Positions 2,548 through 22,606 of a stretch of DNA of 64,000 nt are shown one piece after another. Source of the DNA: Candidatus Latescibacterota bacterium. GTDB lineage: Bacteria; Latescibacterota; UBA2968; UBA8231. The notes under the pieces were generated by a model. It did no database searches. It was not told where the DNA came from and saw only the letters and a list, made by a program, of their open reading frames with translations. How positions within the stretch are numbered: position 1 is the first letter of the stretch; every line of letters begins with the position of its first letter. The stretch spans positions 576,001-640,000 of the forward strand of contig OZ220089.1 of NCBI GenBank assembly GCA_964291625.2, written 5' to 3'. Both the position numbers and the translations under genes were made by a program.

Positions 2548-2749
2548 TACCCCCTCTCACCAGCGGTTCTCTTTCTGCCTACCGTCCATTTGACCTGCCC
2601 ATGTAGGCAGTATTGTCGGAATCGCAATACTGTAAGGAACAGCAATGGTCTATCGGACCGAGAAAGGAGGAGAGGAGCCGATCTTCAAGAGACTGCACAG
2701 TCATCGTTTCCATCCAACCAAATTCCTCTTTGACAAGGAGCCCTTCGCA

Positions 2750-3658
2750 ATGAGGAACTGCCTTTCAGTGCTTGTCGCTCTCGGCCTCGTCTTCGGCCTG
2801 GTCGGGAGCGCCGACGCCCACATCGGGGAGAGGATCTTTCCCCTCTTCGAGCTCGGCGACGACGACATAGCCGACCTCGACTTCACGGACGACACGGTCG
2901 AGGACTGGGAGGACGTGGCCGGCGACGCGACGTACCTGCCCGTCGACTTCTTCGCGGATCCGACCGTGGGCGACGGCGCCCAGTACGATCCAGCCGACCT
3001 CGACTACCGCATCTGGTCCGCCTGGAACAGCTCCACTGGTACGATCTGGTTCGCCATGGAGCGCATCGACAACGTCTACTTCGGCAGGGAGTACGACGGC
3101 AGCAGCCCGTGGAACTACGAGGCCATCGAGGTCATGCTCGACGGCGACCACACGGGCGGCGACTACACCGGTTCGGCCAACCCGGACTGGAACGATGAGG
3201 AGAAGAAGCTCAACAACAACCGTCACGCGCAGCAGTACATCGGCGTGGCCGACGACCCCTCCGGCCGTCACGTCTTCTATCTCGGCGCCGGCGCTGAGTG
3301 GGTCAACGACCTGCCCTACGCCGACGGCGGAGGCTCCTCCGTGGGCGACGGGCCGACGGTCAGTACCATCGAGCTCTTCGTCACCCCCTTCGACGACCTG
3401 ATCTGGAACAGCCCCGATGACAGCCAGGCTTCCGACCTGTTCGACGGCAAGCTCATCGGCTACCAGATCTCGCTGCCCGACACCGACAAGGACGTTGGCC
3501 AGGATCGGGCGTTCCACACCCTGTCCGGTCAGGCTGCGACCTGGCGTTTTGCCGAGCGCTTTGTCGACGCCCGTCTGATCGGTCTGGACGACACTGGAGG
3601 CCCGCCCTCCGCCGTCGAAGAGAACTCCTGGGGCCGCATCAAGGCCGGGATGAAGTAG
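2750..3658 (+). CDS. Secreted acidic protein, CBM9/DOMON-like sugar-binding fold candidate, with C-terminal AVEENSWGRIK tail
   Basis: AAGGAG SD before ATG 2750; signal peptide MRNCLSVLVALGLVFGLVGSADA; motifs DxxVEDW, YRIWSAWN, EAIEVMLDGDH, GYQISLPDTD resemble CBM9-like domains (by eye). Confidence 0.6.
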   Translation: MRNCLSVLVALGLVFGLVGSADAHIGERIFPLFELGDDDIADLDFTDDTVEDWEDVAGDATYLPVDFFADPTVGDGAQYDPADLDYRIWSAWNSSTGTIWFAMERIDNVYFGREYDGSSPWNYEAIEVMLDGDHTGGDYTGSANPDWNDEEKKLNNNRHAQQYIGVADDPSGRHVFYLGAGAEWVNDLPYADGGGSSVGDGPTVSTIELFVTPFDDLIWNSPDDSQASDLFDGKLIGYQISLPDTDKDVGQDRAFHTLSGQAATWRFAERFVDARLIGLDDTGGPPSAVEENSWGRIKAGMK

Positions 3659-3691
3659 GGTAACCGGTTTCTACTTGTTGATTCCCATGTG

Positions 3692-3730
3692 AAGAGAGGG
3701 AGGAGCCCATTCCTCCCTCTCTTTGCACTT
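3692..3730 (+). terminator. Rho-independent terminator
   Basis: 13-bp perfect stem AAGAGAGGGAGGA-gcccat-TCCTCCCTCTCTT followed by a short T-rich tail, 33 nt after stop 3658. Confidence 0.7.
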
Positions 3731-3875
3731 GAGACGCGTTTCGGCACAAACGATTCGAGTGGTGAACGCGACCTCTGCAACTGCCGCGCAGTCCCGGACC
3801 CAGCCTCCCAGTCTTCGGGGCCGTTTTCCGGGCTGCAGTCTATGCTTGTCTACTACAACGGGAGGGAGCAGGGGA

Positions 3876-6368
3876 ATGAGAATCGGGATCTTCGCCGCGC
3901 TGGTCTTCTCGGTATGGGCGGTCGAGTCCGGCGCCGAGTTGCGCCTGTTCTCCATTCCCGGGGATGGCGACACCTGGGCCGGCATCCGGCAGGGGTCGGT
4001 CTCCGAGAACACGTACATCGAGCTCGTCGATCTCGAAGGCTACGAGGACGGCATCGGCCCCATCTTCCCGGCAAGATGGATCCCCGTTCCCGAAATACCC
4101 CTCGACCTGACCGCCGAAGAGGCGGACGCGTCCCTCGACTCCCTGCTCCTCGCTTTCTCCTACCACGTGACCCGCACCGACGTGGTGGCACCGGAGGACG
4201 TGGAGTTGGAGGACGGCACCGTCCTCGCCGCCGGGTCCATCCTGATCCCCCGATGGAGCCCCTTCCCCCGCAGCCTGGAAGGGGTGCAGTTGCTGCGCCG
4301 GGCCGGCGTCACCGAGATCCATGCCATGATCAACGTGGCCGAGTCCTTCCCCCGCCCCCCGGGCGCCGACAAGTACAACAAGAGTCTGAACCTCACCTAC
4401 CTCGCGATCTGGGAGAGAGCCCTCACCGGCATCCGCCGCCAGGAGGGCCTGGCCCGCGTCTTCGACGGCGACCCCACCAGCCACTTCGCCCGCATCGACC
4501 GGGTAGGACAGGACGTGACCCAGAAGTGGGGGCTCTACGTCGACCTGGGGCATTACTTCCCCGTCCGTCTCTTCCGCCTCTATCCCAGCCTCGAGGAGCC
4601 GGTGCGCGTCTCCGCCTACACCTTCTATCGCGGTCTGCCCGACACCGAGACGGAGATCGCCGGCCTCAGCCTGGAAGATCCGAATACAGGGCCCCTGGGT
4701 TACCCCTTGTTCAGCAAGATCGGGGATACCTTTCCCACCTGGCTCCCCGAGGCCAGCGTGCCGGTCAACCGGCAGGACACGATCGCCGTGGTCTTCGACC
4801 CGCCCGTGCAGATGCGCTATTCGAGGATGGACTTCGAGACTCCGCTGGACTACGACCTCGCCGAGATGGAGTACTACGCCGACGGTTTCGTGCGCAGCGC
4901 GGTGTACACCTCCAACGCCCTGCCTCTGCCCCCGGCAACCCTGGGCCGGATCTTCTGGGACGAGGAGAAGATCGGCGATCCCACCCGGTCGAGGATGATC
5001 GTCCGCGTGCGCACCGGCTTCACCACCGAGCCCGACGTGCTGTTCCAGATCAACTATCTCGACCGCGAGGTGGAGTGGCGCCGGGGCGAGGGAAACGCGA
5101 ACATCGTCGACAGGCGGCCCGGTTCCACCACCTGGGGCGAACTGGTGGACCTGGAGTCCAAGGACTTCAACATCGAGGCACGCGACATCTGGAGCGCCGC
5201 CCTGCCCGAGGACCGCGCCTCCATCCGCCTGAGCCGCGAGGACTACATCGGGCTTCCGGTGAGCGTGCGCGGCCGCATCGAGCCCGATCTCGAGTTCTGG
5301 AGCAGCACCCAGGTGGCCACCAACGGCGACCTGGTCCCGGCCCCGAGCGGGCGGCCCTATGTGCAGGTGGAGGTGGCCTTCACCAGCCAGTCACCGGAGT
5401 CGGCCACCATCCTGCGCAACCTCCGCATCGAGTACTCGTCCCCGCAGAGCACCGACGAGCTCTTCGGCGAGATCGCCCCGGCGGCTGAGGTCATCGCCGG
5501 CCGCGACACCTCCTTCGTGCTGGCCCTCCAGGCTTCCCTCGGCGCCGGCAACAGCGGCTTCAACCGGCTGCAGGTCTCTACCCCGGTGCGCACCGGGGGC
5601 ATCGAGGAACTGGAGATGGACCTAGGCGACGGCCAGGTGCTGCGGTTGGAGAACGAGGGCGAGGCGGAGGGAGAGATCCCCGCTGGGCGGTTCCGGGAGC
5701 TGCACGTGGCCGACGATCGGTTCGTCCTCGGCTTCCCCCGCCTCGAGCCGGCAGGCGACGGGGAGGCGCTCGAGGTGCTTCTGAAGGCCCGATTCCGCTG
5801 CCGGGTCATCGACTTCCGCACCCCCTTCACCGCCAGCGTCTTCCTCGATACACTGGGCCTGGAGGTGGAGCGCGACTACAGCTCCAGGGGGATCCTCGCC
5901 CTCGCCGGCGGTGAGAGCGCCCTCGACACCCTGGCCTTCTTCCTGCCTCAGCAGGCGACCAGCCGCGACATCGTCGACTTCGCGGCGACGGACAACCTCT
6001 CCGACCGCAACTCGCTGATAGTCACCGCCGATATCTCCGCCCAGAGCAGCCAACTGGTGAGCAACATCCGCATCGGGCCCAATCCCTTCACCCCCAACGG
6101 CGACGGCATCAACGACGAGATGACCGTCTCACTCGACGTGCAGCGACTGGTGACGCCGAAGCCCGTCCGTCTGGAGATCTTCGATCTCGGCGGCCGGCGC
6201 CTGCATCTCATCGAGCGCGAGTTGGCCTCGGGCGGCTATTCCCAGCAGTGGGACGGCCGCGACGCCAACGGGCAGTTGGTCCCACCCGGCATCTACATAC
6301 TCAGCATCTCCACCGATGCCGATGACGCCGGCGATGCCAGGACGCGCACCGTCTCCGTAGCCTACTGA
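3876..6368 (+). CDS. Secreted protein with C-terminal FTPNGDGIND/FlgD Ig-like domain (paralog 1)
   Basis: Purine-rich SD before ATG 3876; signal peptide; C-terminal NPFTPNGDGINDE...IFDLGGR...WDGRDANGQLVPPGIY...VSVAY. Confidence 0.75.
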   Translation: MRIGIFAALVFSVWAVESGAELRLFSIPGDGDTWAGIRQGSVSENTYIELVDLEGYEDGIGPIFPARWIPVPEIPLDLTAEEADASLDSLLLAFSYHVTRTDVVAPEDVELEDGTVLAAGSILIPRWSPFPRSLEGVQLLRRAGVTEIHAMINVAESFPRPPGADKYNKSLNLTYLAIWERALTGIRRQEGLARVFDGDPTSHFARIDRVGQDVTQKWGLYVDLGHYFPVRLFRLYPSLEEPVRVSAYTFYRGLPDTETEIAGLSLEDPNTGPLGYPLFSKIGDTFPTWLPEASVPVNRQDTIAVVFDPPVQMRYSRMDFETPLDYDLAEMEYYADGFVRSAVYTSNALPLPPATLGRIFWDEEKIGDPTRSRMIVRVRTGFTTEPDVLFQINYLDREVEWRRGEGNANIVDRRPGSTTWGELVDLESKDFNIEARDIWSAALPEDRASIRLSREDYIGLPVSVRGRIEPDLEFWSSTQVATNGDLVPAPSGRPYVQVEVAFTSQSPESATILRNLRIEYSSPQSTDELFGEIAPAAEVIAGRDTSFVLALQASLGAGNSGFNRLQVSTPVRTGGIEELEMDLGDGQVLRLENEGEAEGEIPAGRFRELHVADDRFVLGFPRLEPAGDGEALEVLLKARFRCRVIDFRTPFTASVFLDTLGLEVERDYSSRGILALAGGESALDTLAFFLPQQATSRDIVDFAATDNLSDRNSLIVTADISAQSSQLVSNIRIGPNPFTPNGDGINDEMTVSLDVQRLVTPKPVRLEIFDLGGRRLHLIERELASGGYSQQWDGRDANGQLVPPGIYILSISTDADDAGDARTRTVSVAY

Positions 6369-6410
6369 GGCCCCCCGAGAGTCCGAGAGTACGGAAAGAG
6401 AGGAATCGCC

Positions 6411-9400
6411 ATGAAACGGCATCTGACGTTGGGGGCGTACATCGCCCTGGTTTCCCTGCCGGAGGGTCTCCTGGCCCAGGCCGATCCCGCCTACCGACTG
6501 CAGGGCAACTCGATCCGGGTGGACCGGGTCTCCCACTGGAACAACTGGATCTACCAGAACGACCTGGTCACCAGTCTCAACGCGCCCGTCGGGGGTGTGA
6601 ACATCCTCGAGGTCGGTGCAGGCGGCCTGCGGCCCGTGTTCTTCCGCCGCAACGTCAACGTCGCTCCCACGGCCACGCACTTCACCTACAAGGACCAGGT
6701 CCGCGCCCAAGGGGCGTTGACCCAGGGGGGGACCTCCGCCAAGTCCAACGAAGGCCTGGCCGACAACGTCATCGACGGCGACCTGACCACGTTCTGGGAG
6801 CCGGACACGCCCGCCGACTACCCCAGCCGCCTGGACGCTCCCGGCCACTTCCATCTCGACGGCCTGCGCGAGTGGGAGGTGGAGATCGACCTCGGCCGGC
6901 TGGTCTTCGCCGACAGCCTGACCTTCATCTTCCCCTCGGACCAGTTCGAGGGCGAGTTCCTCGGCCAGCCGGTCAAGGCCTTCGCGGTCTTCGCCTCCAT
7001 GGGCGAACGCTTCCCCTTTCCCCTGGGCAACAATCTGCGCTTCACCCTCGTGGCCCAGGCGTCGACAGGCGTTGTCGGGGCGGACGGCGTGGAGCTGGTG
7101 CCCGTGCCCGGCACGGAGGGGAGGTACGCGCAGATGACCTTCGGCCTGGTGCCCCTGGACCGGGCCGACTGGGATCTCGACGGCATCCCCGACATCAGCG
7201 GGACCTTCCTCCAGTATATCCGCTTCAAGGCCACGGCTTCCGATCTCTGGCGCGATGCCTTCCTCGGGTCGGGCGAGGAGGCCCGTCTCGCCTATGAGGC
7301 CCTGCCCGCCGAGCGGCGCGGCGCCGTCATCTATCAGCGCCTGACGGCCGGCGGCCTGCTCGTGGACCTCCGGGACGACGGCAACCAGACAGCCCGGGAG
7401 AAGCACCAGACCCTGCCCGAGGCCAAGCGCGGGCCGATCCTGTACTACGTCAAGGAGGTCCCCCGCCTCGCCGAAGTCCAGGTCTGGACCCGGGGCGACA
7501 ACTACGCCTACCAGCCGGAGAGCCGCGCCGGCGACTCCTTCGAGCACGGCGGCCTGGGCGCGCCCGAGCTGGCCACCGACGGCAACTACGACACGGAGTG
7601 GCAGGCCAATACCTGGTCGCCCGTCTACGTCAAGGGCACCGCCTGGTACGACCTGGGCGCCGTGTTCTGGGTGGACAACCTCTCCGTGGTCAACAAGCGC
7701 ATCAACCAGAGCAACCACGGCGCCTTCATCGGCCCCGGCATTCTGGTCTCCGACGGCACCCTGCTCAAACCGGTTGCCATGGAGGACCGCGGCGACTTCA
7801 CCCAGCTCGAGGACGGGCTCCAGTGGCACAACATCATCGGCGAGGAGAAGCTCACCAACCGCACGTCCAAGGTCCGCATCTTCCAGGAGGATTTTCCCCT
7901 GCGCAAGATCCGCTTCCTGCAGATCCGCGATCTCGACATAACCGGCTCCAGTTCCGGCCGGTACGGCGCGCTGGCGACCCTGGCCGAGTTCCAGCTCTTC
8001 GGCGAGGGCTACCCGGTCAGCGTCTGGGCCTACTCGCCCCCCATCGCCCTGACCGACTCGCGGGGCGAGTTCGTCCGCAAGACCCTGCCCCGCATCAGTT
8101 GGGAAGGCGACATCATCGTCCGCGAGACCGACCCCCTCACCGGCGAGGCGGTCGAGCGCTTCGAGCCGCTGCACAGCGATCCGGATGTCCGCCTCCAGGT
8201 GCAGACCCGCACCTCCGACCAGACCGACAGCCTCTTCACCTACTTCGAGGTCGTCTCCGTCGCCGGCAGCGAGGAGCGCACGGAGGTCACCAAGGATCGC
8301 CACGACCAGATCGCCCTGCAGTGGGCGGCCTGGGAGTACTGGCAGACCCTGCCCAGCGACCAGCGGCACGCCTCGCGCCACGACGACGACGGCGACGGCC
8401 TGGAGGACGAGGACGAGATCGACTTCAAGGACAACGACGGCGACGGCCTGGTCGACGAGGACGGCAAGAAGCTGCGCCGGGCGCCGCGGTCGACCTTCGC
8501 CAGGGACGGAGAGTTGGCCTTCGTCGGCTGGAGCCCCTGGAGCGAGAGCTACCTGCCCACCAACGGCCTCAGCCAGGCGACGGTCACCTCTCCCAACCCG
8601 CGCAAGTTCATCCAGGTCCGCGTCAACATCCTGTCGGAGGATCCCTTCAAGACGGCCCGCATCCGCAGCCTGCGCATCGACCTGGCGCCTCCCGTCGCCC
8701 TGGAGCTGGTGGGGGAGCTGGCCCTGCTCAGCGACGACGGTGCCGGGCGGGCGCTGACCGATCTGGATGTTCTGCCCACCGACTACACCCCCCCCACCGG
8801 CATCGATCCCCTCAAGGCCCAGCGGTTCTCCTACTTCATCCGTTCCGCCGGGCCCGATCCGACCGTGCGCGGCGGCTTCGACGAGGTGCTGATCACCACG
8901 CCCCGCGCCTCCCGCCTCACCGGGGTCCGTCTCGGCCGAGTGGAGGTCGCCCGCAGGTCCTCCGCCCTCGACCCGGAGCAGGAGGAGACCGCCGCGGTGG
9001 CCACCCGCTTCGACCACGTCTTCGCCCCCGGCGGCGACGGGGTCTTCCGCAACGAGGCCGGTCAGATCCTGGAGCAGGTGGCGGCCGGTGCCGACTCCGT
9101 CTGGGTCCGTTTTCCCTTCTCCGTCAACACCGGCCTGCCGGGGGGGGAGCACGCCCTCATCGAGGTGCAGTTCGAGTCGCAGAGCTTCCGGGAAGGCATC
9201 GAGTACACCTCCTTCGTGCGCTCCTCCGACTCGGAGGAGGTGGTCTTCCAGCGGGTGGACATCGACTCCCGGGACGCCACCGAGCTGGTGGCCTCCTCCA
9301 CGACGAGGGTGGGCCTGGCGGAGCTCGTGGGACCGCTGATTCAGGACGTGGCGCTGGCCCGGGTCTTCACACCCAACGGAGACGGCGTCAACGACGAGTT

Positions 9401-9656
9401 GCCTGTGAGCTTCGCCCTCCTGAAGGTGCTGCAGGAGCGGCCCCTGGAAGTGGAGTTCTTCGACCTGGGGGGCCGCCTCGTCGGCCGGGGAAGGAATACG
9501 GCGGGAGCCCCCAAGGCCGGGTACAACACCTTCACCTGGGATGGCCGTGACCCGGGCGGCCGGCTGGTGGCGCCGGGGATCTACCTGTGCCGGATCAAGG
9601 TCGAGGCCGACGTCGAGGACAGCCAGTTCATGCGGCTCGTCCACGTGGCTTATTGA
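6411..9656 (+). CDS. Large secreted protein with discoidin-like segments, acidic Ca-binding repeats and C-terminal FTPNGDGVND/FlgD Ig-like domain (paralog 2)
   Basis: GAGG SD; signal peptide; NVIDGDLTTFW, IDLGRL, ATDGNYDTEW, YDLGAVFWVD (F5/8-like); DDDGDGLEDED/DNDGDGLVDED; ends VHVAY. Confidence 0.75.
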   Translation: MKRHLTLGAYIALVSLPEGLLAQADPAYRLQGNSIRVDRVSHWNNWIYQNDLVTSLNAPVGGVNILEVGAGGLRPVFFRRNVNVAPTATHFTYKDQVRAQGALTQGGTSAKSNEGLADNVIDGDLTTFWEPDTPADYPSRLDAPGHFHLDGLREWEVEIDLGRLVFADSLTFIFPSDQFEGEFLGQPVKAFAVFASMGERFPFPLGNNLRFTLVAQASTGVVGADGVELVPVPGTEGRYAQMTFGLVPLDRADWDLDGIPDISGTFLQYIRFKATASDLWRDAFLGSGEEARLAYEALPAERRGAVIYQRLTAGGLLVDLRDDGNQTAREKHQTLPEAKRGPILYYVKEVPRLAEVQVWTRGDNYAYQPESRAGDSFEHGGLGAPELATDGNYDTEWQANTWSPVYVKGTAWYDLGAVFWVDNLSVVNKRINQSNHGAFIGPGILVSDGTLLKPVAMEDRGDFTQLEDGLQWHNIIGEEKLTNRTSKVRIFQEDFPLRKIRFLQIRDLDITGSSSGRYGALATLAEFQLFGEGYPVSVWAYSPPIALTDSRGEFVRKTLPRISWEGDIIVRETDPLTGEAVERFEPLHSDPDVRLQVQTRTSDQTDSLFTYFEVVSVAGSEERTEVTKDRHDQIALQWAAWEYWQTLPSDQRHASRHDDDGDGLEDEDEIDFKDNDGDGLVDEDGKKLRRAPRSTFARDGELAFVGWSPWSESYLPTNGLSQATVTSPNPRKFIQVRVNILSEDPFKTARIRSLRIDLAPPVALELVGELALLSDDGAGRALTDLDVLPTDYTPPTGIDPLKAQRFSYFIRSAGPDPTVRGGFDEVLITTPRASRLTGVRLGRVEVARRSSALDPEQEETAAVATRFDHVFAPGGDGVFRNEAGQILEQVAAGADSVWVRFPFSVNTGLPGGEHALIEVQFESQSFREGIEYTSFVRSSDSEEVVFQRVDIDSRDATELVASSTTRVGLAELVGPLIQDVALARVFTPNGDGVNDELPVSFALLKVLQERPLEVEFFDLGGRLVGRGRNTAGAPKAGYNTFTWDGRDPGGRLVAPGIYLCRIKVEADVEDSQFMRLVHVAY
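8382..8462 (+). repeat. Two acidic DxDGDGLxDED repeats within CDS
   Basis: Translation DDDGDGLEDEDEIDFKDNDGDGLVDED. Confidence 0.7.
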
Positions 9657-9682
9657 GACAGAGCAAACAAAGGGAGGAATCT

Positions 9683-12433: not shown

Positions 12434-12442
12434 GAGGTGATC

Positions 12443-13198: not shown

Positions 13199-13224
13199 CA
13201 AGGTCTCCTTCGGACCATCACCTG

Positions 13225-13266
13225 ACTGCGCGGTGCCGCCGCAAGGAGGCGCCGCGCAGTTTCTTT
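13225..13266 (+). terminator. Rho-independent terminator
   Basis: ACTGCGCGGTGCC...GCAA loop...GGCGCCGCGCAGT followed by TTCTTT. Confidence 0.75.
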
Positions 13267-13274
13267 GACAGGAC

Positions 13275-14969
13275 ATGCCATCGATGAGGTGGAGATCTCT
13301 CACCCTGGGTCTGTGCGCGGCTCTCCCGGCGTGCGGCCCCCAGGCCGGGCCCGGCGATCCCGCGGCGGTACTGGCCACGGTCTCCGGGCGGCCGATCACC
13401 GCCCTGGATCTGGAAGAGTACGAGCGGACCCTGCCCTCCTACCTGCGATCGAAGAAGGAGGGAGCGGCCTCCCATGGAGAGCACCTCCGGAGCCTGGTCG
13501 ACAGGGAGCTGGTCCTGGGCGAGGCCGGCCGTCGAGGGCTGGACCGGCACCCGGACGTGGAGAGCGCCCTCTCGGCGATGGTCGATGAACGCGCCGCAGA
13601 AGAGCTGGCCGGAAGACTGGTCGACGCCCGCCTCTCGGTCACTGAAGAGGAGCTGCGCACCTTCTACGAGGAGGAGTCGCTGGGTTGGCAGGTCTGGCCC
13701 GCCCACATCCTCTCCGCCACCGAAGAGGAGGCTCGCGAAGTCATCCGCCTGCTGTCGGAGGGAGCGGATTTTGGCGGACTGGCACGGGAGCGCTCCCTGG
13801 CCGGCGACGCGGACAAGGGCGGCGATCTGCAGGCCTTCTTCGGGGCCTCGGATGCCGTGCCGACCCTGCGGGAGGGCGCCTTCCACCTCGAGGAAGGGCA
13901 GGTGAGCGAGCCGATCCGCACCTTCGAGGGCTACGAGGTGGTCAAAGTGCTGCGGAAACGGAGGCGGCCCTACGGGGAGTTGCGGCAGGAGATCTATCAG
14001 CGCCTGATGACGCGCAAGGGCTGGGAGCGGCGCACCGCCATCATCGACTCGCTCAAGAAGGCTCGCGGCCTGCGTCTCCACCGCCAAATGGTGCCGGCGG
14101 TCTTCGACGGGCTGCACGGCCGGGAGGTCGACCCGGGCCATGAGCAGGCCCCCCTGGTCGAGTACGAAGGGGGCGTCGTCACCGTCCTCGACGCCATGGA
14201 GGGGCTGCGCGACCTGGACAAGGACGCCCTGCCGCCTGACACTGCCGCCGTCGTCCGCGCACTCGAGGAGAGGTTGATCCCCGATTCCCTGCTGGTCCTC
14301 GAGGCCCGGGCCCGCGGGCTGACCGATGGGCCGGGCATGGTGGAGTGGCGGGAGAGGGAGCGCCTGGGCCTGATGGCCGCACGCCTGCGCAGCGACGTGG
14401 TGAAGGGCCGGGCCGAGGTGACGGAAGAGGAGGTGAGGGATCATTACGAGCGGAACCTGGAGTCCTACACTTCCCTGCCCGGCTTCATCTGGATGACGGA
14501 GGTCCTCCTCGACACCCGCGCCCAGGCCGATTCAATCCTCGCACGGGCGCGGGCCGGCGAAGGGCTGGAGGTGCTCGCCGCCCGCCACTCGGTGCGTCCC
14601 GGCATGAAGCCGGTGGGGGGGCACACCTTTGGGGACAGCGGCAGAGTCACCATCCAGCCCCTCTACAAGTCGCCGTACCGTACCGTCTTCGGAGACCGCA
14701 ACACCGAGGATGTGGGCGTGCTCCAGGGTCCGCTGGAGGTACAGGGGAGGTACAGCGTCTTCCGCCTGGATCAGCCTTTCGAGAAGGAGGCCGTGCCCTT
14801 CTGGCGGCTGCGCCGGCGCATCGCCGGGCAGATCCTCAGGCGGCGGGAGGCCGTCCTCTTCGAGAGCTTCCTCGATTCGCTGCACCGCGCCCATGCCGCC
14901 GAAGTGGTGATCCGCGAGGAAGCCCTCTCCCGTTACGTCGCCGCCCGTCAGAGCCTCGATCCCCCGTAG
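13275..14969 (+). CDS. Parvulin/PpiC-type peptidyl-prolyl isomerase lipoprotein (SurA/PrsA-like, two rotamase-like halves)
   Basis: Lipobox ALPA-C; VLATVSGRPIT; AHIL...GADFGGLARERS...KGGDL...EGQVSEPIRTFEGYEVVKV. Confidence 0.75.
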   Translation: MPSMRWRSLTLGLCAALPACGPQAGPGDPAAVLATVSGRPITALDLEEYERTLPSYLRSKKEGAASHGEHLRSLVDRELVLGEAGRRGLDRHPDVESALSAMVDERAAEELAGRLVDARLSVTEEELRTFYEEESLGWQVWPAHILSATEEEAREVIRLLSEGADFGGLARERSLAGDADKGGDLQAFFGASDAVPTLREGAFHLEEGQVSEPIRTFEGYEVVKVLRKRRRPYGELRQEIYQRLMTRKGWERRTAIIDSLKKARGLRLHRQMVPAVFDGLHGREVDPGHEQAPLVEYEGGVVTVLDAMEGLRDLDKDALPPDTAAVVRALEERLIPDSLLVLEARARGLTDGPGMVEWRERERLGLMAARLRSDVVKGRAEVTEEEVRDHYERNLESYTSLPGFIWMTEVLLDTRAQADSILARARAGEGLEVLAARHSVRPGMKPVGGHTFGDSGRVTIQPLYKSPYRTVFGDRNTEDVGVLQGPLEVQGRYSVFRLDQPFEKEAVPFWRLRRRIAGQILRRREAVLFESFLDSLHRAHAAEVVIREEALSRYVAARQSLDPP

Positions 14970-14982
14970 GCGAGGCTCATCC

Positions 14983-17004
14983 GTGCGGCTGAGGCTCGCG
15001 GCGCTGCTCGTCGGCCTGGGACTCGTGGCGCTCCTGGAGGGCGCCCTCCGGCTGGTCCCGGCCCTCCGGCCTCCGGCCTTCACCGTCCGCCTCGCCACGG
15101 TGGAGGACCGGACCCTCAACGCCGTCAATCCGGACTACCCGCAACGCTTCTTCGCCGGCGTTGCGGGGGACCTTCCCGCGGGCGGCGTCCGCATGACCCC
15201 CCGGCCCTACGTCGAACCCGCACCGCCGGAGGCCCTGCGGGTGCTCTTCGCCGGCGGGTCGACGGTGCAGGGCTTCCCCCACCCCAAGCGCCTGTCGGCG
15301 CCCTCCTGTCTCCAGGAGATGCTCCGGGACCTGCATCCCGGACGCCACATCGAGGTCTACAACGCCGGGATCACGGCCGCCTCGAGCTTCGCCGTTGCCC
15401 GCGCCGTGGAGGACGGTGTCCGGGCCCTGGAGGCCGACCTCGTGGTGGTCTACACGGGACATAACGAGCTCTACGGAGTGTACGGGGCCGCCTCCCTCGC
15501 CCAGGGCGGCCGGGGCCTGTGGAGCAAGAGGCTTCACTACGGGGTGATGCAATGGCGGATGACCCGCCTGGTGGTCCGGCTCCTCAGGGCCTTCGGCACC
15601 GACGAGGCTCAACCCGCGGACCTGCTGGAGACCATGTCGCGCACGGGCTCCGTCCCCGTGGACGACCCGAGACGGGAACGGGCCGCCGCCAACCTGGAGG
15701 CCAACCTGAGGGACGTGGCCGCCTTCTGCCGGGAGCGGGGCATCCCCCTGGTGCTCTGCACCCTGACCAGCAACGAGCGCGGCTTCGCGCCGGCCCGCGG
15801 CGCGCCCCCTCCGGGCGAGGAGGGCACGACGTACCTGGACCTGCTGCAGGCCGGCAGCCGCGGCCAGGCCTCCGCCGGCGCCCTGCAGGCCCTGGAAGAG
15901 GCCCGCGAGCTGCGCGAGGACGACGCCTACCTGCAATTCCTGCGCGGCCACCACCTGGAGCGCCTCGGGGACGGGTTGGCGGCGCGGCAGGCCTACCTGC
16001 AGGCCCGCGAGCTGGATACCCGGCCCTGGCGGGCGACGGCCCGGCTCACCGAGGTGGTGCGCCGGGTTGCGGCCGAGGAGGGGGCGCTCCTGGCCGAGGT
16101 GGAAGGGCGGTTCCTGGATCACAGCCCGGCCGCCGGCGTGGGCTGGGAGCTGATGGCCGACCACCTGCACCCCACCGCCGCCGGGCAGGCGCTGCTCGCC
16201 CGGGCCGTGGCCGCGGCCCTGCGCGATGCACCTCAACCCTGGGGATCCCCGTCCGAGGGGCTCCGGCGCCTCCAGGCCGACGACCGCTACCGCCAGCGCC
16301 TCGGAGACCTGCCCGTCGAGCAGCTCGCCGTCACCCGGGCCATGGCCCGCCTCTTCGCCTCTCCCCCCATGGACGAGGGCAACGAGAGCCGCGCCGAAGA
16401 TCTCCGCCGGCAGGGCGCCACCCTTGTTGCCGGGCTGAGCCCCGGAGAGCGGCGCGGGGTCGAGCGCTGGGTGCAGGGAGAAGGGCCGGACCTGCTGGCC
16501 CTGAATGTGGCCGAGGCCCTGTTCTCGGCGCGGGACTACCAGCGGGCGCGATCCTACTACCAGGCCTCCCGCCTGGAGCAGCCTTTCACGATCTGGAGCG
16601 ACTTGTGGGCCACCCTGCGCTGGGTCCGTTGCGGTCGGTTGGCTGGCCGCCCGCCGGACGAGACGGACAGGGCGGCCCTCGAGACGGTGCTGGATCGCCT
16701 GCGTTTCCTGGCCCCGGCGCCCGGATTCTCCCAAGGGCTGCAGGACTTCATCGAGGGGTACGCCCGCCACCTGCTGGGGCAAAGGGCCGGCGCCCTGGCC
16801 GCCCTCGAAGCGGCCATCCGGGATGAGGAGACACGGCGCAGGTTCTTCCCCGAGCTGCTCCATCTGCTCGTGATCGAGCTGATCGCCGCAGGCCGCCCCG
16901 GGGACGCCGAACGCTACGCGCTCCAAGTCTCCGCGGAGCTGCGCCAGGAGGCTGTCGGACGCGCCCTGGTGGAGCGCATCCGGGCAGGTGCAGCCCCACG
17001 CTGA
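14983..17004 (+). CDS. SGNH/GDSL hydrolase-like protein with TPR-like helices
   Basis: N-terminal anchor; GGSTVQG (block I), NAGI, YTGHNE (block III), DHLHP (block V). Confidence 0.7.
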   Translation: MRLRLAALLVGLGLVALLEGALRLVPALRPPAFTVRLATVEDRTLNAVNPDYPQRFFAGVAGDLPAGGVRMTPRPYVEPAPPEALRVLFAGGSTVQGFPHPKRLSAPSCLQEMLRDLHPGRHIEVYNAGITAASSFAVARAVEDGVRALEADLVVVYTGHNELYGVYGAASLAQGGRGLWSKRLHYGVMQWRMTRLVVRLLRAFGTDEAQPADLLETMSRTGSVPVDDPRRERAAANLEANLRDVAAFCRERGIPLVLCTLTSNERGFAPARGAPPPGEEGTTYLDLLQAGSRGQASAGALQALEEARELREDDAYLQFLRGHHLERLGDGLAARQAYLQARELDTRPWRATARLTEVVRRVAAEEGALLAEVEGRFLDHSPAAGVGWELMADHLHPTAAGQALLARAVAAALRDAPQPWGSPSEGLRRLQADDRYRQRLGDLPVEQLAVTRAMARLFASPPMDEGNESRAEDLRRQGATLVAGLSPGERRGVERWVQGEGPDLLALNVAEALFSARDYQRARSYYQASRLEQPFTIWSDLWATLRWVRCGRLAGRPPDETDRAALETVLDRLRFLAPAPGFSQGLQDFIEGYARHLLGQRAGALAALEAAIRDEETRRRFFPELLHLLVIELIAAGRPGDAERYALQVSAELRQEAVGRALVERIRAGAAPR

Positions 17005-17023
17005 CGTCTTTCTCCAGCCCGCC

Positions 17024-19117
17024 TCAGTCCCGGCCGGTACCGATCCGTCGATGGACTTCTGCGAGCAGGGCCTGAGCCTGGGGTGAAGGGCCCCTGGCCA
17101 GCACCTGCCGCAACCGCTCGACGGCGGCGCCGTGGCGTCCCTCTTCGGTGTCCATGAGGGCCAGGTTGACGTGGGCCTCCGGGTTTTCCGGGTCCAGCTC
17201 CAGGGCCTCCAGGAAGAGGGTCCGGGCCCTCTGAGTGCGCCCGTCGAGCAGGTGCAGGGCGCCCATGGCGACCAGGGCCTCGGGCCGCCTCTCCAGGGAC
17301 AGGGCGCGCCCATACGAGTCGAGGGCGGCCTCGGGCCGCCCGGCCTGGTGCAGGGCGCGTCCCAACTGGTAGTGGATCCGGGAGTCCCGCGGCCGGGAAG
17401 CCAGGGCCCGACGGAAGTGCTCGGCAGCAGCCGCGTAGCGCCCCTGGCCGTAGAGGAGACGGGCGTACTCGTAGTTGGCCATGCCGGATCCCGGATCAAG
17501 CTCCAGGGCGCGCAGCAGGGCGGCCCGGGCCTGCAGCGGCCGGCCCGCGTCCAGGTGGATGCGGGCGAGAAGCACGTGGGTGTCCACCCGCCGGGGATTC
17601 TCCGCCAGGGTGGCCAGGGCCGTCCGGCCGCTCTCCTCCAGGCGGCCCTGATGGTAGCAGGCCACGGCCAGATTGTGGCGCGCGTAGTTGTATCCCGGAT
17701 CCAGCTCCAGGGCCCGCCGGGAGTGGGTCTCGGACAGTGCGTACTCCCCCTTGCGCAGGTAGACCTCGCCCAGGTCGAAGTGGAGTTGGGCGTCCTCGTC
17801 GGTGGGGGCCGCCCTCCCCAGGTTGCACAGGACCAGGAGAACGGCCAGGAGCACCCCCAGCCTCGCCGCCTCCGGCCAGGATCTCCGGCGCAGGCTGCGG
17901 AGCAGACGCCAGGCCGCCAGGGCGGCAAAGACGATCAGCACGGGCAGGACCGGCATGCGGTAACGGGCGGCGGGGAAGAACAGCACGACCGAGGCCGTGT
18001 AGCCGAGAACGTAGAGCCGCAACAGGGCCGTTGGATCCCCGCGGATGCGGAGGCTCAGCCCCAGGCCGAGCAGGCCCAGGGGGGCGACCAGTCCGAAGGG
18101 CATGGAGAGGTGCCGGTCCCACAGCAGGAGACCGAGGATCCAGGAGTGCTGCCGGGCATGGTAGATGTCCTGGTTGCGCTTGACCTCCGGGCCGCTCCAG
18201 AAGTCCCGGGTCTTCCTGGCGAGGAGGCCGAGGTAGTCGAGGGGGTGGGAGGCAATCCAGGCCAGGCCCTTGCGCAGGAAGTAGGAGGACTTCGCCGCCG
18301 CGGTCACGTGGCCCGCCCTCGCCGGCTCGGAGACCATCTCCTCCCACTCCACCCCGGGCCGCAGGGCGACGGTGCGCTCGTAGTCGGCGTTGTTGCCTAT
18401 GAAGAAGTTGACGCCGCCGTTGGCCGAGACCAGGACCAGGCCCGGCTCGGCGGCCCAGTTGCGCACGGTGACGGGGAGGATCACGAGGAGTGCGCAGCCC
18501 GCGAAGGGCGCCAGGACACGCGCGGAGCGCCGCCGCCACAGGTGCCAGGCGCAGAAGAGAGCGACGAAGAGGAGGATGTTGGGGCGGGCGAGGACGGCCA
18601 GACCGGCCGTCACGCCGGCCAGGCCCCAGTCCCGGCTGCGCCCCCGGTCCTGGGCCACCACCAGGAGCTGGAGAAGCAGTAGGTCCAGGAATACCTCCAG
18701 GGGTACGGCCAGCAGCTCTCCCTCGAAGTAGAGGAAGGTGCCGCACAGGGCGGCCGCCCAGCCGGCGATCCGCGCCGCCGGCTCGCCGAAGCCGCGGCGG
18801 GCGAGGCCGTACACCAGCAGGCAGGAGAGGGCCCCCAGGAGGGCGTGGACGAGACGGATGCCGACGAAGTACGAGCCCGGCATGAGCCAGCAGACGAAGG
18901 CCAGCAGGTAGATGTAGAGGGGCGCCTGCCAGTAGGGCTCGGCACCGCCCCGGAGATCGCCGGCGGCGATGGCCAGGGCCTGGTCGAGGAAGGTGCGGGC
19001 GTCGACGACGGGTGCGTCGAAGAACGGGCTGGCGCCGTGCTGGTGGATGTAGCCCAGCCTCAGCGCCAGCGCCGCCAGCAGGAGGCAGCCGGCAAAGAGA
19101 CGGGACCCGCGGCCCAT
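17024..19117 (-). CDS. GT-C (GT39/PMT_2-like) membrane glycosyltransferase with C-terminal TPRs
   Basis: PVVDARTF luminal loop, YWQAPLY, LARPNILLF, NFFIGNN, ARYRMP; many TM segments; 6-7 TPR-like repeats (ALELDP...). Confidence 0.75.
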   Translation of the reverse strand: MGRGSRLFAGCLLLAALALRLGYIHQHGASPFFDAPVVDARTFLDQALAIAAGDLRGGAEPYWQAPLYIYLLAFVCWLMPGSYFVGIRLVHALLGALSCLLVYGLARRGFGEPAARIAGWAAALCGTFLYFEGELLAVPLEVFLDLLLLQLLVVAQDRGRSRDWGLAGVTAGLAVLARPNILLFVALFCAWHLWRRRSARVLAPFAGCALLVILPVTVRNWAAEPGLVLVSANGGVNFFIGNNADYERTVALRPGVEWEEMVSEPARAGHVTAAAKSSYFLRKGLAWIASHPLDYLGLLARKTRDFWSGPEVKRNQDIYHARQHSWILGLLLWDRHLSMPFGLVAPLGLLGLGLSLRIRGDPTALLRLYVLGYTASVVLFFPAARYRMPVLPVLIVFAALAAWRLLRSLRRRSWPEAARLGVLLAVLLVLCNLGRAAPTDEDAQLHFDLGEVYLRKGEYALSETHSRRALELDPGYNYARHNLAVACYHQGRLEESGRTALATLAENPRRVDTHVLLARIHLDAGRPLQARAALLRALELDPGSGMANYEYARLLYGQGRYAAAAEHFRRALASRPRDSRIHYQLGRALHQAGRPEAALDSYGRALSLERRPEALVAMGALHLLDGRTQRARTLFLEALELDPENPEAHVNLALMDTEEGRHGAAVERLRQVLARGPSPQAQALLAEVHRRIGTGRD

Positions 19118-19166
19118 GGCCTCGAGACGGCCCTTCGCCGGCGCCTATGGACCGGGGATCAGCGGC

Positions 19167-21815
19167 TCAATAAGCGACGGAGAGGACGCCGGAGTGCCGG
19201 GTGGAGGTGTCGTCGGAGTCGACGGCGAAACGGTAGAGATAGATCCCGGGGGGCACGAGCAGGCCGTTCTCGTCGCGGCCGTCCCAGGTGAACCGCAGGG
19301 CGCCCGCCGCCGAGTCCCCGGCCTCGATCCGGGCCAGGCGGCGCCCGGACAGGTCGTGGATGTCGAGCTCCACCTCGACCTCCTCGGTGACGAGGAAGAG
19401 GTCGAAGGAGAACACGATCTCGTCGTTGATGCCGTCGCCGTTGGGGGTGAAGGGATTGGGGCTGACGAGAGGCGCCTGCACGACGCTGCCGATATCCTGG
19501 ACCACGACGAGCCGGGAGTTGGTGCCCACGTCGGGAGTGGCGTCCCCGTCCTCGGTGGGCTGGGGGATCGCGGTGTCTCCGAGCTCGTCGTTCCACAGGG
19601 AGCTGAGGAACTGCTGGGAGCCCCGGAAGAGCCGGGAGCGGAAGACGACCTCGATGTTCTCTCCGAACTGGAAGTGCCCGGCACCCATGGAAGGCAGCTT
19701 GATCGACAGCTTGTGGGCCCCGGTGACCGGGTCGGTGACGACAGACTGGGCGAACTGCCCCAGGCTGTCGGGGCTGCCCGCGACCGGGGCGAGACGGGCG
19801 GGATGGACCTCGAGGAGAGGATCGTCGCCGGTGCCGGCGGCGATCTCCGCCCAGGCCTGCCCGTCGACGCGCAGGGTGTCGATGCGGCTGTCGACGCTGG
19901 GAACGTCGATCTCGATCCGGTTGAAGACCATCGGATCCCCCGGCCCGAAGAGCGGCCGGAGGTAGTAGCGGAAGAGGGCCTCCTCGCCGAGGGGGACGCC
20001 TGACGGGAAGATCTCGGCCACCACGCCCCCGGAGACGAGGGGCGTGTCGTAGTCGAACTCGATGAAGTCGAGGAGGGCGGCGCCGTGCTGGGGGCCGTCG
20101 AAGTAGACGCGGAACTGGATGTAGCGGGTGCCTCCGGGCAGGGGAAGCTGGACGCCGGCATCGCTCCACTCGGACTCGGGCAGGCTCTCGTCGATGAGTC
20201 CGTCCGCCAGCTTGAAGGGCGCCGACCAGTAGCTCCAGCCACGTCTCCCGTCGGCGCCGACGTCGACGCCCAGCTCGTTGTAACGCAGCTCGCGCTCGGG
20301 GATGCGGCCGTCGGTGAGCTTGATCCAGGCGAAGAGGTCGAGAGGATCGCCTTGGTCGTCGCGGTCGTCCTCGAAGCCGGGGCCCAGCCGGCGGGCGTAG
20401 ACATGGGTGTCGAGCGAGTTGCCGACCCGGAACTGGATGCGCACATCGCCGCCGAGGCCGTCGCGGCGGCCCTTCCACCGGACCTTGCCCCAGTTGACCT
20501 GGTCGCCGGGCAGGTTCAGGTCGAACTGGCCTTCGTAGGCCTCCCGCTCGCCGCCGGAGAACTGCTCGATCTCGCGGTCGTAGCGGCGGGCGCGCGGCGT
20601 GGGGACACCCACGTCGATGACGGCCGAGGTGTACTGGCCGTCGATGGCGAAGCCGTCGCCGAAGTGGCCGAGCTCGGCGATCTGGCTGAGCTTGCCCTCG
20701 GGATCGATGGAACGGATGTCGACGCGGCCGGCGACATAGGTGGGGAAGCGCAGGTTCTTGATCACCGGGGTGAGCTGATCGCGGGTGGGGGAGACCAGGG
20801 TCCTGTTGATCCCGATGGTCTCGGAATGGAGGTTGATCCCGTGCTGGTCGCCGTATTGGATGTAGTAGTTGGCGATGGTTCCTCCCGGAAGGGTCGGATG
20901 GGGGCGGAAGGTTATGCGGTTGAGGTAGTAGTAGCCCATCAGGTTCATCGCGATCCCGCCGCGGCCGTACTTGGTGCTGTTGAACTCGGTGCGGAGGTTG
21001 CCGTCCACCGCCCTCTCCGCGTCCTCCCGGCGGATGACCCCCGCCGCCGCCCAGTAGTCGCCCGAGACGGGGTCGGAGACCTCGCGGCGGAAGCCGTACT
21101 CGCTCGGCACCACCATGTAGGGCCGCTGGGTGTCCTTGCCGGGGATGACCCCGCCGAACTCGCCGGCCTTGTAGCGCTGGTTGAGCATGTAGGCGAGGTT
21201 GCGCAGGCTGTCGAGGCGGATCGGCCGGATCCAGGTGGTCACGCCGCCGCCGTGTTCGGGCATGTCGGGATCCTCGTCCACGAGCCCGTCGCCGTCGTCG
21301 TCGACGCCGTTGATGGGATCCTCGTTGAGCAGGCCGTCCCAGTCGTCGTCGTACTGACTGTAGAGGCCGTCCTCGTTGAGCAGCCCGTCGCCGTCGTTGT
21401 CGATCTGCGGATCGGGACCGTCTTCGTTGATCAGCCCGTCGATGTCGTTGTCGATCAACTCGGGCGGGTCCTCGTCGATGAGGCCGTCGCCGTCGTCGTC
21501 GATATTGTTGTCCGGGTCCTCATTGAGCTGGCCGTCGCCGTCGTTGTCGACCTGCGGGTCCTCGGGGTCCTCGTTGATCGTGCCGTCGTCGTCGTTGTCG
21601 ATGAGGTCCACGGGATCCTCGTCGATGAGACCGTCGCCGTCGTCGTCGGCCAGCAGCTCCACCGCCCAGCTGCGCCCCAAGTCGAGGCGGCCCGTCACCG
21701 GCCGCAGGATCCATGGATGCGTGCCGTCGCCGACGCGCCAACTCTTGATCTCCGCCCAGCCGTCGCCGGCCAGGAGCAGGGCGCCCAGCAGAGCCAGTGT
21801 CGATAGCCTGATCAT
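19167..21815 (-). CDS. Secreted protein with 8 acidic Ca-binding repeats and C-terminal FTPNGDGIND/FlgD Ig-like domain (paralog 3)
   Basis: Signal peptide; tandem DxDxDGxxxED repeats; NPFTPNGDGINDE...WDGRDENGLLVPPGIY...LSVAY; ATGA-coupled to upstream lipoprotein. Confidence 0.75.
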   Translation of the reverse strand: MIRLSTLALLGALLLAGDGWAEIKSWRVGDGTHPWILRPVTGRLDLGRSWAVELLADDDGDGLIDEDPVDLIDNDDDGTINEDPEDPQVDNDGDGQLNEDPDNNIDDDGDGLIDEDPPELIDNDIDGLINEDGPDPQIDNDGDGLLNEDGLYSQYDDDWDGLLNEDPINGVDDDGDGLVDEDPDMPEHGGGVTTWIRPIRLDSLRNLAYMLNQRYKAGEFGGVIPGKDTQRPYMVVPSEYGFRREVSDPVSGDYWAAAGVIRREDAERAVDGNLRTEFNSTKYGRGGIAMNLMGYYYLNRITFRPHPTLPGGTIANYYIQYGDQHGINLHSETIGINRTLVSPTRDQLTPVIKNLRFPTYVAGRVDIRSIDPEGKLSQIAELGHFGDGFAIDGQYTSAVIDVGVPTPRARRYDREIEQFSGGEREAYEGQFDLNLPGDQVNWGKVRWKGRRDGLGGDVRIQFRVGNSLDTHVYARRLGPGFEDDRDDQGDPLDLFAWIKLTDGRIPERELRYNELGVDVGADGRRGWSYWSAPFKLADGLIDESLPESEWSDAGVQLPLPGGTRYIQFRVYFDGPQHGAALLDFIEFDYDTPLVSGGVVAEIFPSGVPLGEEALFRYYLRPLFGPGDPMVFNRIEIDVPSVDSRIDTLRVDGQAWAEIAAGTGDDPLLEVHPARLAPVAGSPDSLGQFAQSVVTDPVTGAHKLSIKLPSMGAGHFQFGENIEVVFRSRLFRGSQQFLSSLWNDELGDTAIPQPTEDGDATPDVGTNSRLVVVQDIGSVVQAPLVSPNPFTPNGDGINDEIVFSFDLFLVTEEVEVELDIHDLSGRRLARIEAGDSAAGALRFTWDGRDENGLLVPPGIYLYRFAVDSDDTSTRHSGVLSVAY
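21270..21647 (-). repeat. Eight tandem acidic repeats D[DN]DxDGxx[DN]ED (16-17 aa period)
   Basis: DDDGDGLIDED, DNDDDGTINED, DNDGDGQLNED, DDDGDGLIDED, DNDIDGLINED, DNDGDGLLNED, DDDWDGLLNED, DDDGDGLVDED. Confidence 0.85.
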
Positions 21816-22606
21816 CGCGCTCCTCCGTCGATTTCCATTGCGGCAGCGGTCGAGGGCTGGTTGGTCGAGAGCGTCCGCGTGCCGTCCGGGCTGAGGCGGC
21901 CCACTTCGCGCTCGAACCGGTAGCGGATGTCCACCGTCTCCACCGGCTCGTTGCGGTGGTCGAAGCGGAGAACAGTGTCGTAAATGGTCACCTCGACCCG
22001 CGAGACATCGGGATGGAGCACCGGGAAGACGAGATAGCCCTCGAGCTCCTGGCCGCTGAAGATGACTTCCTTCCGGAACATGCTGCGCCGGGCCAGATCG
22101 ATGCGCTCCTGGTAGCGGTCGTACTCGTTGCCCCGGTAACCGAGGACATAGGTCCGGTAGTAGCTCTTCAGCTGACTCACGTCGAGGCTCCAGTAGCGGC
22201 GGCCGTTGTCGGCCGTCAGCTCCACCTGGGTCGGGTCGATCTGAACCCTCGGGAAGGCGTAGTTCTTGACGTTCAGGTGAAAGACCGTGAAGCGGGACTG
22301 ACCCTCCCCGCCCTCCCGCAGCTCGGCGTCGCCGAAGGTGAAGGGGTTCGTCGAGACGGGCCCCGACCGGGAGTGGGAGGCGAACTGGCGGTTGAGCTCG
22401 GCGTCGGTGATCGGGCGGAGCCTCACTTCGAGGCGGCCCAGTGTGTAGGTCACCGCCCCGTCGTCGGCCACCGCTACCGCTTTCTCCTGCCCGTCGGAGG
22501 GCCGGAGTGGACCGGCGTAGTAGGTGTATCCACAGCCGCTGCCGAGGAGGAGGAGAAGGCTGGCCGCGGCCGGAGGCAGGCTCTTGTTCATTTGCATAGT
22601 TCCCAT
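21812..22606 (-). CDS. Hypothetical lipoprotein (paralog of 12443-13198)
   Basis: Lipobox LLGSG-C; shares VADDGxVT, GRLEVxLRPxTDxELNRQF, RFTVF, EGYLVF, RFERExGR. Confidence 0.7.
   Translation of the reverse strand: MGTMQMNKSLPPAAASLLLLLGSGCGYTYYAGPLRPSDGQEKAVAVADDGAVTYTLGRLEVRLRPITDAELNRQFASHSRSGPVSTNPFTFGDAELREGGEGQSRFTVFHLNVKNYAFPRVQIDPTQVELTADNGRRYWSLDVSQLKSYYRTYVLGYRGNEYDRYQERIDLARRSMFRKEVIFSGQELEGYLVFPVLHPDVSRVEVTIYDTVLRFDHRNEPVETVDIRYRFEREVGRLSPDGTRTLSTNQPSTAAAMEIDGGAR

Follow-up and report, generated by a model that had tools for sequence, protein, structure and literature searches.

How a bacterium of the phylum Latescibacterota might display proteins on its outer surface is the question raised by a gene cluster at positions 2750–22606 of the 64,000-nucleotide stretch of contig OZ220089.1 analysed here, which we refer to as the window and whose numbering is used throughout. 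The cluster encodes three proteins with C-terminal domains (CTDs) resembling those of type IX secretion system (T9SS) cargo, termed cargo 1–3, together with a protein of 916 amino acids (aa) termed the barrel, two lipoproteins and several accessory enzymes. A first-pass annotation had proposed a surface display or uptake apparatus analogous to, but separate from, the T9SS. The conserved envelope module, the new barrel family and the gene layout reminiscent of type B T9SS cargo have stood up to closer analysis, whereas the separateness from the T9SS has not. The module exists and is conserved, and the sources available contain no description of it. With a probability of about one half, we interpret it as a lineage-specific addition to the T9SS, in which exported lectin-like cargo would be held on giant barrels for the capture of glycans.

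All ten open reading frames of the annotation are present, with strands and motifs as given there, and the locus is composed as follows.

2750–3658, plus strand: secreted CBM9-like protein with an SWGRIK tail (302 aa)
3876–6368, plus strand: cargo 1, Tyr-ending CTD (830 aa; FTPNGDGIND; C-terminus VSVAY)
6411–9656, plus strand: cargo 2, Tyr-ending CTD (1081 aa; FTPNGDGVND; C-terminus VHVAY), directly upstream of the barrel gene
9683–12433, plus strand: barrel, a large outer-membrane beta-barrel of an unnamed family (916 aa)
12443–13198, plus strand: first lipoprotein, of an unnamed family (251 aa; lipobox Cys17)
13275–14969, plus strand: large parvulin peptidyl-prolyl isomerase/chaperone with a probable lipobox (564 aa; Pfam Rotamase, 51 bits)
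14983–17004, plus strand: membrane-anchored SGNH hydrolase/acyltransferase-like protein (673 aa; Lipase_GDSL_2, 45 bits)
17024–19117, minus strand: GT-C (PMT_2) membrane glycosyltransferase with C-terminal tetratricopeptide repeats (TPRs; 697 aa; PMT_2, 47.7 bits; 10 hydrophobic segments)
19167–21815, minus strand: cargo 3, Tyr-ending CTD and Asp-rich repeats (882 aa)
21812–22606, minus strand: second lipoprotein, a paralogue of the first (up to 264 aa)
22649–22620, minus strand: promoter candidate TTGACA-18 nt-TAGGCT, between rpoN and the second lipoprotein gene

Among these ten products, a Pfam or NCBIfam name could be given only to the parvulin, to the SGNH and GT-C/TPR proteins and to the C-terminal domains of cargo 1–3; no model of either database matches the SWGRIK protein, the barrel or either lipoprotein.

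Two classes of C-terminal domain

A search of the genome with a profile built from 21 of its own Tyr-ending CTDs retrieved 128 CTDs at protein C-termini, which were divided into classes by their last residue and not by their position. Each of the 29 Tyr-ending domains has a barrel gene within 15 kb, compared with only 4 of the 99 others, while 7.3% of the genome lies that near. The 99 mostly end like RKLTLLR, and the four found near barrels belong to proteins of 626–766 aa which head the core loci described below. The genome holds 25 barrel paralogues; 11 of these genes stand directly downstream of a Tyr-CTD gene, nine more behind another barrel and five in neither position.

The AlphaFold2 model of cargo 1 (pLDDT 80) contains a CBM32-like domain, immunoglobulin (Ig)-like domains and the CTD. 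Model residues 130–316 match CBM32 (Z 10.7, root-mean-square deviation (rmsd) 2.7, 121 aligned) and residues 704–810 the CTD of PorU (6za2; Z 12.7, rmsd 2.5, 97 aligned), which is the best match of this domain among 48,161 chains and is closely followed by the CTD of PorZ (Z 10.4), although CTD Z values of 10–13 lie only modestly above those of other Ig folds. The profile of the CTD family also finds the PorU CTD (E 3e-4). PorU and PorZ keep their CTDs, consistent with the presence of these domains in the PDB chains matched. Cargo 2, a paralogue of cargo 1 with three DxDxDG motifs, matches Pfam FlgD_ig (28.7 bits) and, weakly, F5/8 type C (E 8e-4), and cargo 3, with eight such motifs, matches FlgD_ig at 43 bits. 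Pfam CHU_C is matched over part of the model by cargo 1 (32 bits) and cargo 3 (29 bits; cut-off 27). The annotation had compared these CTDs to the type B class; the FTPNGDG motifs are indeed there, but TIGR04131, the model of the type B CTD, stays near 21 bits (cargo 1, 21.3; cargo 3, 21.2; cut-off 35), with no match in cargo 2, and the best structural match is the PorU CTD. The N-termini of the cargo proteins, read by eye, are signal-like.

The family profile of the SWGRIK protein matches the CBM9 of a Thermotoga xylanase (PDB 1i82, E 9e-5), and Pfam CBM9_1 is found in 3 of 25 family members (best E 0.001). No catalytic domain was found in cargo 1–3 or in the SWGRIK protein. Cargo 1 and the SWGRIK protein carry sugar-binding-like folds, a fold being no proof of sugar binding. 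Tails of the form [ST]W[GA]x[ILV]K end 58 open reading frames genome-wide, 9 of them within 15 kb of a barrel and the rest farther away; this tail may be a separate sorting signal.

A giant barrel of no known family

The large beta-barrel suspected by the annotation was recovered in an AlphaFold2 model (pLDDT 83, pTM 0.85; 75-sequence alignment) as an outer-membrane barrel with 23 long strands, short and long connections in alternation and hydrophobic residues alternating in most strands. The model suggests about 22–24 membrane strands, with a beta domain inserted at approximately model residues 240–415 on the long-loop, probably outer, side. A loop of 121 aa, 37 of them Asp or Asn, would lie on that same, probably outer, side; it holds most of the near-invariant positions, many of them 90% conserved, and probably binds calcium.

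Structure searches with this model returned only generic outer-membrane barrels (TM-score by query at most 0.26; Z at most 14), such as LptD (Z 13.9, rmsd 5.9) and an usher (Z 11.9, rmsd 6.8, 337 aligned), and the family profile found nothing below E 0.03 among PDB sequences and did not retrieve SlpA. Neither the barrel nor any of 53 homologues matches the PorP/SprF models PF11751 and TIGR03519, of which the 273-position model is about one third as long as the barrel, nor do they contain the Pfam domains Plug or TonB_dep_Rec. An Atlas lead to DUF6029 (score 0.89) was unsupported by Pfam scans of the 53 homologues. Among the matches listed, the named homologues are all called "hypothetical protein" and labelled Latescibacterota or Gemmatimonadota, except one labelled "bacterium" and one 46-aa fragment named RecR. 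With no specific match in Pfam, NCBIfam or PDB, the barrel is an outer-membrane pore of no known family. In a quick tree of 44 barrel sequences, 12 barrels of the window type stand apart from those of the core type. When the barrel (model residues 88–906) was modelled together with the cargo 1 CTD, the score was 0.00 twice and the controls did not fold; this outcome is used neither for nor against binding.

Conservation of the gene order

The barrel is at least 69% identical in 44 of 58 loci fetched, the gene order being consistent in all 44, and the seven plus-strand genes occur in the order of the window in 34/34 orthologous loci whose flanks cover the unit; therefore, the grouping of these genes is not due to chance. 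The minus-strand unit is less fixed among the loci compared. In seven loci from five other genera, which like the two same-genus loci come from related genomes and may overlap the loci of the barrel relatives above, ASPIC/UnbV-type genes always separate the SGNH gene from the cargo 3 unit, the GT-C gene is present in five, and a second operon with two more barrels stands head to head with cargo 3 in three. In the genome analysed here, 9 of the 16 ASPIC genes lie in window-type loci. As a side observation, ASPIC/UnbV-FG-GAP genes are enriched near barrels in this genome (10/16 within 15 kb), but the window locus of this genus has none.

The annotation had also noted that the pairing of lipoprotein and CTD protein occurs twice. 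Within the window this is true locally, but the first lipoprotein follows the barrel and not a CTD protein, and the second is co-oriented with cargo 3 in this genus only: it lies on the strand opposite the cargo 3 orthologue in all six other-genus loci that hold it. The arrangement beside rpoN, including the TTGACA candidate, is common to the two same-genus loci examined. This promoter candidate, which had been assigned to the minus-strand unit, falls below the threshold of a consensus scan, yet both hexamers are retained in 2/2 same-genus loci, one of them reading TAGCCT; promoter and terminator scans of 12000–24500 were at chance level. Contigs from RNA libraries (four runs of three studies) span the plus-strand genes up to the lipoprotein and in some cases bridge gene junctions; as assembled sequences they may hold DNA and cannot give strand, level or operon structure. 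Over the SWGRIK gene (2600–3700), their word depth of 177–350 is far above that of the other genes in three of four runs, a contig depth by which genes cannot be ranked.

Lipoproteins and accessory enzymes

The two lipoproteins of the window are 49% identical, and their lipobox Cys is invariant in 23 family members. Five of these 23 match DUF4352 weakly, the Atlas neighbours are unnamed or weak DUF4352 proteins, and the family profile found nothing credible in PDB. The parvulin has seven paralogues in the count made here, all within 15 kb of a window-type barrel. In the SGNH protein, the GGS, GHN and DHLH motifs are intact and an N-terminal hydrophobic segment is present; its paralogues lie near barrels in 4/4 cases and in window-type loci in 3/4. 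It had been annotated as an SGNH-TPR protein, of which the SGNH part stands while a Pfam scan detected no TPR family. The description of the glycosyltransferase as GT-C-TPR, in contrast, agrees with both the PMT_2 match and its TPRs. Five of six GT-C paralogues lie within 15 kb of a barrel, window-type loci likewise accounting for 5/6, and the sixth adjoins a paralogue of the lipoprotein.

The type IX secretion machinery of the genome

No T9SS core gene is recognisable in the window, as the annotation had said, but the genome carries SprA, PorU and a PorV-family barrel, and SprA accompanies the module in 89 of 91 barrel-positive genomes; the idea of a system distinct from the T9SS is not supported. 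Outside the window, SprA reaches 606 bits with TIGR04189 (cut-off 200). Two PorU proteins exceed their cut-off of 420 (571 and 536 bits), a third C25 protein is present as well, and adjoining PorU there is a barrel of the PorV/PorQ family (241 bits, cut-off 90) which remains below the PorV equivalog cut-off (151 vs 250). For GldK, this genome yielded FGE-type matches alone, none of them reaching the cut-off. Neither GldM nor GldN was detected in the phylum (0/151 genomes), where no positive control gave a signal, so that their absence is unproven, and PorP was not found in this genome by searches whose controls were likewise silent. The locus therefore maps onto a full T9SS only by half, with SprA, PorU and the PorV family found and GldM, GldN and PorP not. 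Among the 91 barrel-positive genomes no credible PorP was seen (two weak matches). That the barrel replaces PorP across the phylum is not supported: PF11751 matches in barrel-negative genomes resembled PorP at first sight, but the three best are PorV/PorQ-family proteins. Judged by these searches (SprA in 148/151 genomes by PF14349, GldM and GldN in none), the phylum possibly uses a minimal T9SS with another source of energy.

Distribution across the phylum

We surveyed 151 genomes of the phylum, each at least 80% complete. The barrel occurs in 91 of them, the lipoprotein in 90/91 barrel-positive and 0/60 barrel-negative genomes, the cargo body in 84/91 and 2/60 (both borderline), and the Tyr-type CTD in 86/91 and 0/60, at a threshold (E ≤1e-20) set from the score gap in the CTD search of this genome. 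Two of the five genomes missed by this threshold, G043 and G046, have a divergent Tyr-ending CTD heading a barrel cluster. Barrel, lipoprotein and Tyr-CTD thus go together across genomes, as the annotation had suggested should be checked. The module was found in 10 of 14 families; 66 of the 91 barrel-positive genomes, besides this genome, come from one family, so the counts are not independent, and since the genomes are kin no statistic is given. The translocon is near universal and the module present in fewer genomes, which makes the module an add-on.

Plug domains were found in 151/151 genomes, and the notion that the barrels replace TonB-dependent receptors was discarded. DUF4159 is likewise present in 151/151 genomes, so that its presence is uninformative; its copies number 2–19 in barrel-positive and 1–4 in barrel-negative genomes.

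Core loci, motor genes and solo barrels

A second type of barrel locus, the core locus, occurs four times in this genome and also in genomes G017, G043 and G046. It begins with a Tyr-CTD gene, followed by one to three barrels and a TPR protein of about 1090 aa, and mostly continues with DUF5683, ExbB, two ExbD, a membrane-anchored DUF4159 protein and a lipoprotein paralogue, some of these members having been identified by eye. The two lipoprotein paralogues tested from motor loci are fused, above cut-off, to the C-terminal, TonB-C-like domain of AgmX/PglI. These motor-locus paralogues and their TonB-C-like fusions tie the lipoprotein family of the window to a proton-driven motor, by paralogy only. 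Matches of core-locus proteins to GltG (20 and 34 bits, cut-off 650) cover the C-terminal domain only.

In G017, about 50 barrel paralogues are scattered over contig C1 (loci L086–L094) as solo genes; several of their reading frames fall short of the full length, which suggests that copies are broken or that the sequence contains errors. The solo barrels group with the third core barrel in the quick tree, in a clade different from that of the window type. In G043, DUF4159 genes lie directly upstream of solo barrels, and a PorV/PorQ-like gene (L097:17302–18354; 53 bits, cut-off 90) stands between a Tyr-ending CTD gene and a barrel. A Lys-ending CTD protein lies nearby in three of nine solo-barrel regions of G017 read. 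Such Lys-ending-CTD proteins, of about 630–770 aa and with no other Pfam domain in the three scanned, head core loci and accompany some solo barrels, at the following places.

L086:487–2397, L088:9907–11796 and L092:737–2719: Lys-ending-CTD proteins
C1:24563, C1:370920, C1:4455754 and C2:41689 of this genome: Lys-ending-CTD proteins

Proposed mechanism and its alternatives

In the mechanism that we propose, cargo 1–3 would cross the inner membrane via Sec and the outer membrane via SprA. The Tyr-ending CTD would be a second class of sorting signal, outside the general PorV/PorU route, and would be retained on the cargo and dock on the co-encoded giant barrel, which would take the role that PorP/SprF has for type B cargo in Bacteroidota. 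This cargo-on-barrel reading is suggested by the proximity of all 29 Tyr-CTDs to barrels, the T9SS-type fold of the CTD and the type B-like gene layout. The lipoprotein may be the barrel's obligate partner and the parvulin a helper dedicated to folding, while the CBM32-like cargo and the CBM9-like protein would capture glycans at the cell surface. The weakest step, though plausible, is uptake through the barrel, for which the ExbB/ExbD motor of the core loci would supply power in trans. Family membership makes acylation or glycosylation of the complex's envelope components the probable task of the SGNH and GT-C enzymes. A more far-reaching version, in which the barrels form a new class of plug-less, motor-energised transporters, unrelated to TonB-dependent receptors, for which the T9SS delivers substrate-capturing lids by means of a dedicated CTD of a third type, with the ExbB/ExbD-type motor possibly replacing GldLM of a minimal T9SS in Latescibacterota, is conceivable and on balance unlikely.

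Several points weigh against docking of the cargo on the barrel. Three cargo genes share one barrel at the window locus, which itself has no motor genes, and the contact between barrel and cargo is predicted from gene linkage and folds, just as sugar binding by the CBM-like folds is putative. The co-occurrence counts rest on related genomes. G053, which is 96% complete, has the module and no SprA match, and GldM and GldN are wanting from the survey with its silent controls. G017 combines its approximately 50 barrel genes with two Tyr-CTD genes, and the nine regions read there, of about 50 places, hold ten barrels among metabolic genes with no Tyr-CTD neighbour, from which it follows that the barrel family can work without such cargo.

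This last pattern suits a different explanation, that the barrels are substrate-specific, motor-energised receptors or transporters and the CTD proteins merely co-regulated lectins which take the ordinary PorV route and do not dock. The dispersed solo expansion among catabolic genes of G017, the core loci with ExbB, ExbD and a lipoprotein paralogue fused above cut-off to a TonB-C-like domain, and the DUF4159 genes directly upstream of solo barrels in G043 agree with it, but cargo that took the general route would leave a separate, barrel-linked CTD class hard to explain, the domain scan of the barrel detected no TonB plug, and ordinary TonB-dependent receptors are present too (24 plug matches in this genome); we consider it improbable. 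The T9SS-independent system envisaged by the annotation would make the barrel itself an usher-like secretion pore for the Tyr-CTD proteins, served by the parvulin as chaperone. SprA in 89/91 barrel-positive genomes, a CTD fold closest to T9SS CTDs, the PorV-like gene between cargo and barrel in G043 (53 bits against a cut-off of 90) and solo barrels without cargo render this distinctly improbable, even though the barrel is in the size range of the generic matches usher and LptD, the chaperone is dedicated in 7/7 cases, G053 has the module with no SprA match, and GldM and GldN were not found. No window protein matches an usher family in Pfam or NCBIfam; an usher appears only among the generic structural matches.

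It is also very doubtful that the module is an adhesion or surface-motility machine like Agl-Glt, in which a motor would pull barrel-bound adhesins and the window locus would supply alternative barrel/adhesin heads. GltABH, GltC, AglRQS and GltG are the parallel parts of Agl-Glt (PMC11761067), and the core loci, with three barrels, a giant TPR protein, an ExbB/ExbD-like motor and an AgmX/GltG-type TonB-C-like domain, resemble such a machine; however, the barrel family matches no NCBIfam model, the window proteins have no Glt/Agl equivalog above cut-off, the similarity to GltG is confined to the C-terminal domain and far below cut-off, and 25 to about 50 barrel paralogues per genome suit substrate diversity better than one motility machine. 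Least probable of all is a structural scaffold like SlpA of Deinococcus, anchoring a surface layer of CTD proteins. SlpA is the top Foldseek match of the barrel (E 2.7e-7), but with a TM-score of 0.20 and an rmsd above 20, and Pfam SlpA_C is weakly matched by 11 of 53 homologues (best E 2e-7), but with at best 30 bits against a cut-off of 35 and over only about 90 residues of barrel strands. SlpA, too, has metal-binding insertions (PMC9388160), whereas the barrel has no SLH match and its model shows neither a coiled-coil stalk nor a long N-terminal helix.

Relation to known systems

The addition to the T9SS proposed here is closest in its presumed working to the type B branch, represented by SprB-SprF and PG1035-PorP-PorE, of which it is not a member by profile. 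Type B cargo requires a cognate PorP/SprF barrel encoded directly downstream and is PorV-independent (PMC12618676), and it stays barrel-bound in the PorE-PorP-PG1035 complex (PMC9143113). In both systems SprA is present, a second CTD class exists, and the loci, of which there are many paralogues, have the cargo gene directly upstream of the barrel gene and a lipoprotein gene downstream; the cargo resembles adhesins or lectins in both. In contrast to PorP/SprF, the window barrel is about 900 aa long and unrelated to PorP by profile. Its CTD partners have a PorU/FlgD-like Ig fold and score under the type B cut-off. The lipoprotein differs from PorE, searches did not turn up GldM or GldN, and the locus, which belongs to the phylum Latescibacterota, adds a parvulin, an SGNH protein and a GT-C enzyme.

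SusC/SusD utilisomes combine a TonB-dependent transporter with surface glycan-binding proteins. The module shares with them large multi-copy barrels beside sugar-binding-like surface proteins and, in related loci, an ExbB/ExbD motor and a TonB-C-like domain, but has no plug or match to TonB-dependent transporter families, surface partners with CTDs in place of lipoproteins, and no glycoside hydrolase in the locus. With Agl-Glt of Myxococcus xanthus the core loci have in common three barrels, a TPR scaffold, a TolQ/TolR-like motor and the AgmX/GltG-type C-terminal domain, whereas by profile neither the barrels nor the cargo are related to it, a motor is missing from the window locus and the cargo has T9SS-like CTDs. 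The SlpA/OmpM family, including the 30-stranded SlpA of Deinococcus, resembles the barrel in its very large size, insertions, acidic and probably metal-binding loops and a weak profile and Foldseek similarity; the window barrel differs in having fewer strands, no SLH domain or coiled coil, multiple copies and linkage to cargo genes.

A survey of 2015 placed the complete T9SS only in Bacteroidetes (10.1101/031039), and the first Latescibacteria genome paper contains, among the terms searched, no passage on such a module (PMC4454575). No description of it was found in the literature searched, whose scope left out most subscription journals and supplements, so that absence from print is not established. 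The findings point to a branch of the T9SS outside Bacteroidota with a new class of sorting signal and to very large outer-membrane barrels that form a new and heavily expanded family, in a lineage that is abundant, uncultured, marine and associated with sponges. Should these barrels both hold lectin-like cargo and import glycans, the module would parallel SusC/SusD while consisting of other parts. The CTD classes separate cleanly, which offers a direct test of how CTD sequence selects the route, and SprA with no detectable GldM or GldN raises the question of the energy source of the translocon.

Neighbouring genes

The locus is adjoined on the minus strand by a housekeeping cluster (22666–29012) of rpoN, an LptB-like ABC ATPase, an LptC/LptA-like protein and CTP synthase, and preceded at 248–2490 by a Lactate-racemase-N/DUF362-like protein and a short-chain dehydrogenase. 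Farther along, the window has a strong AT skew at 45502–56876.

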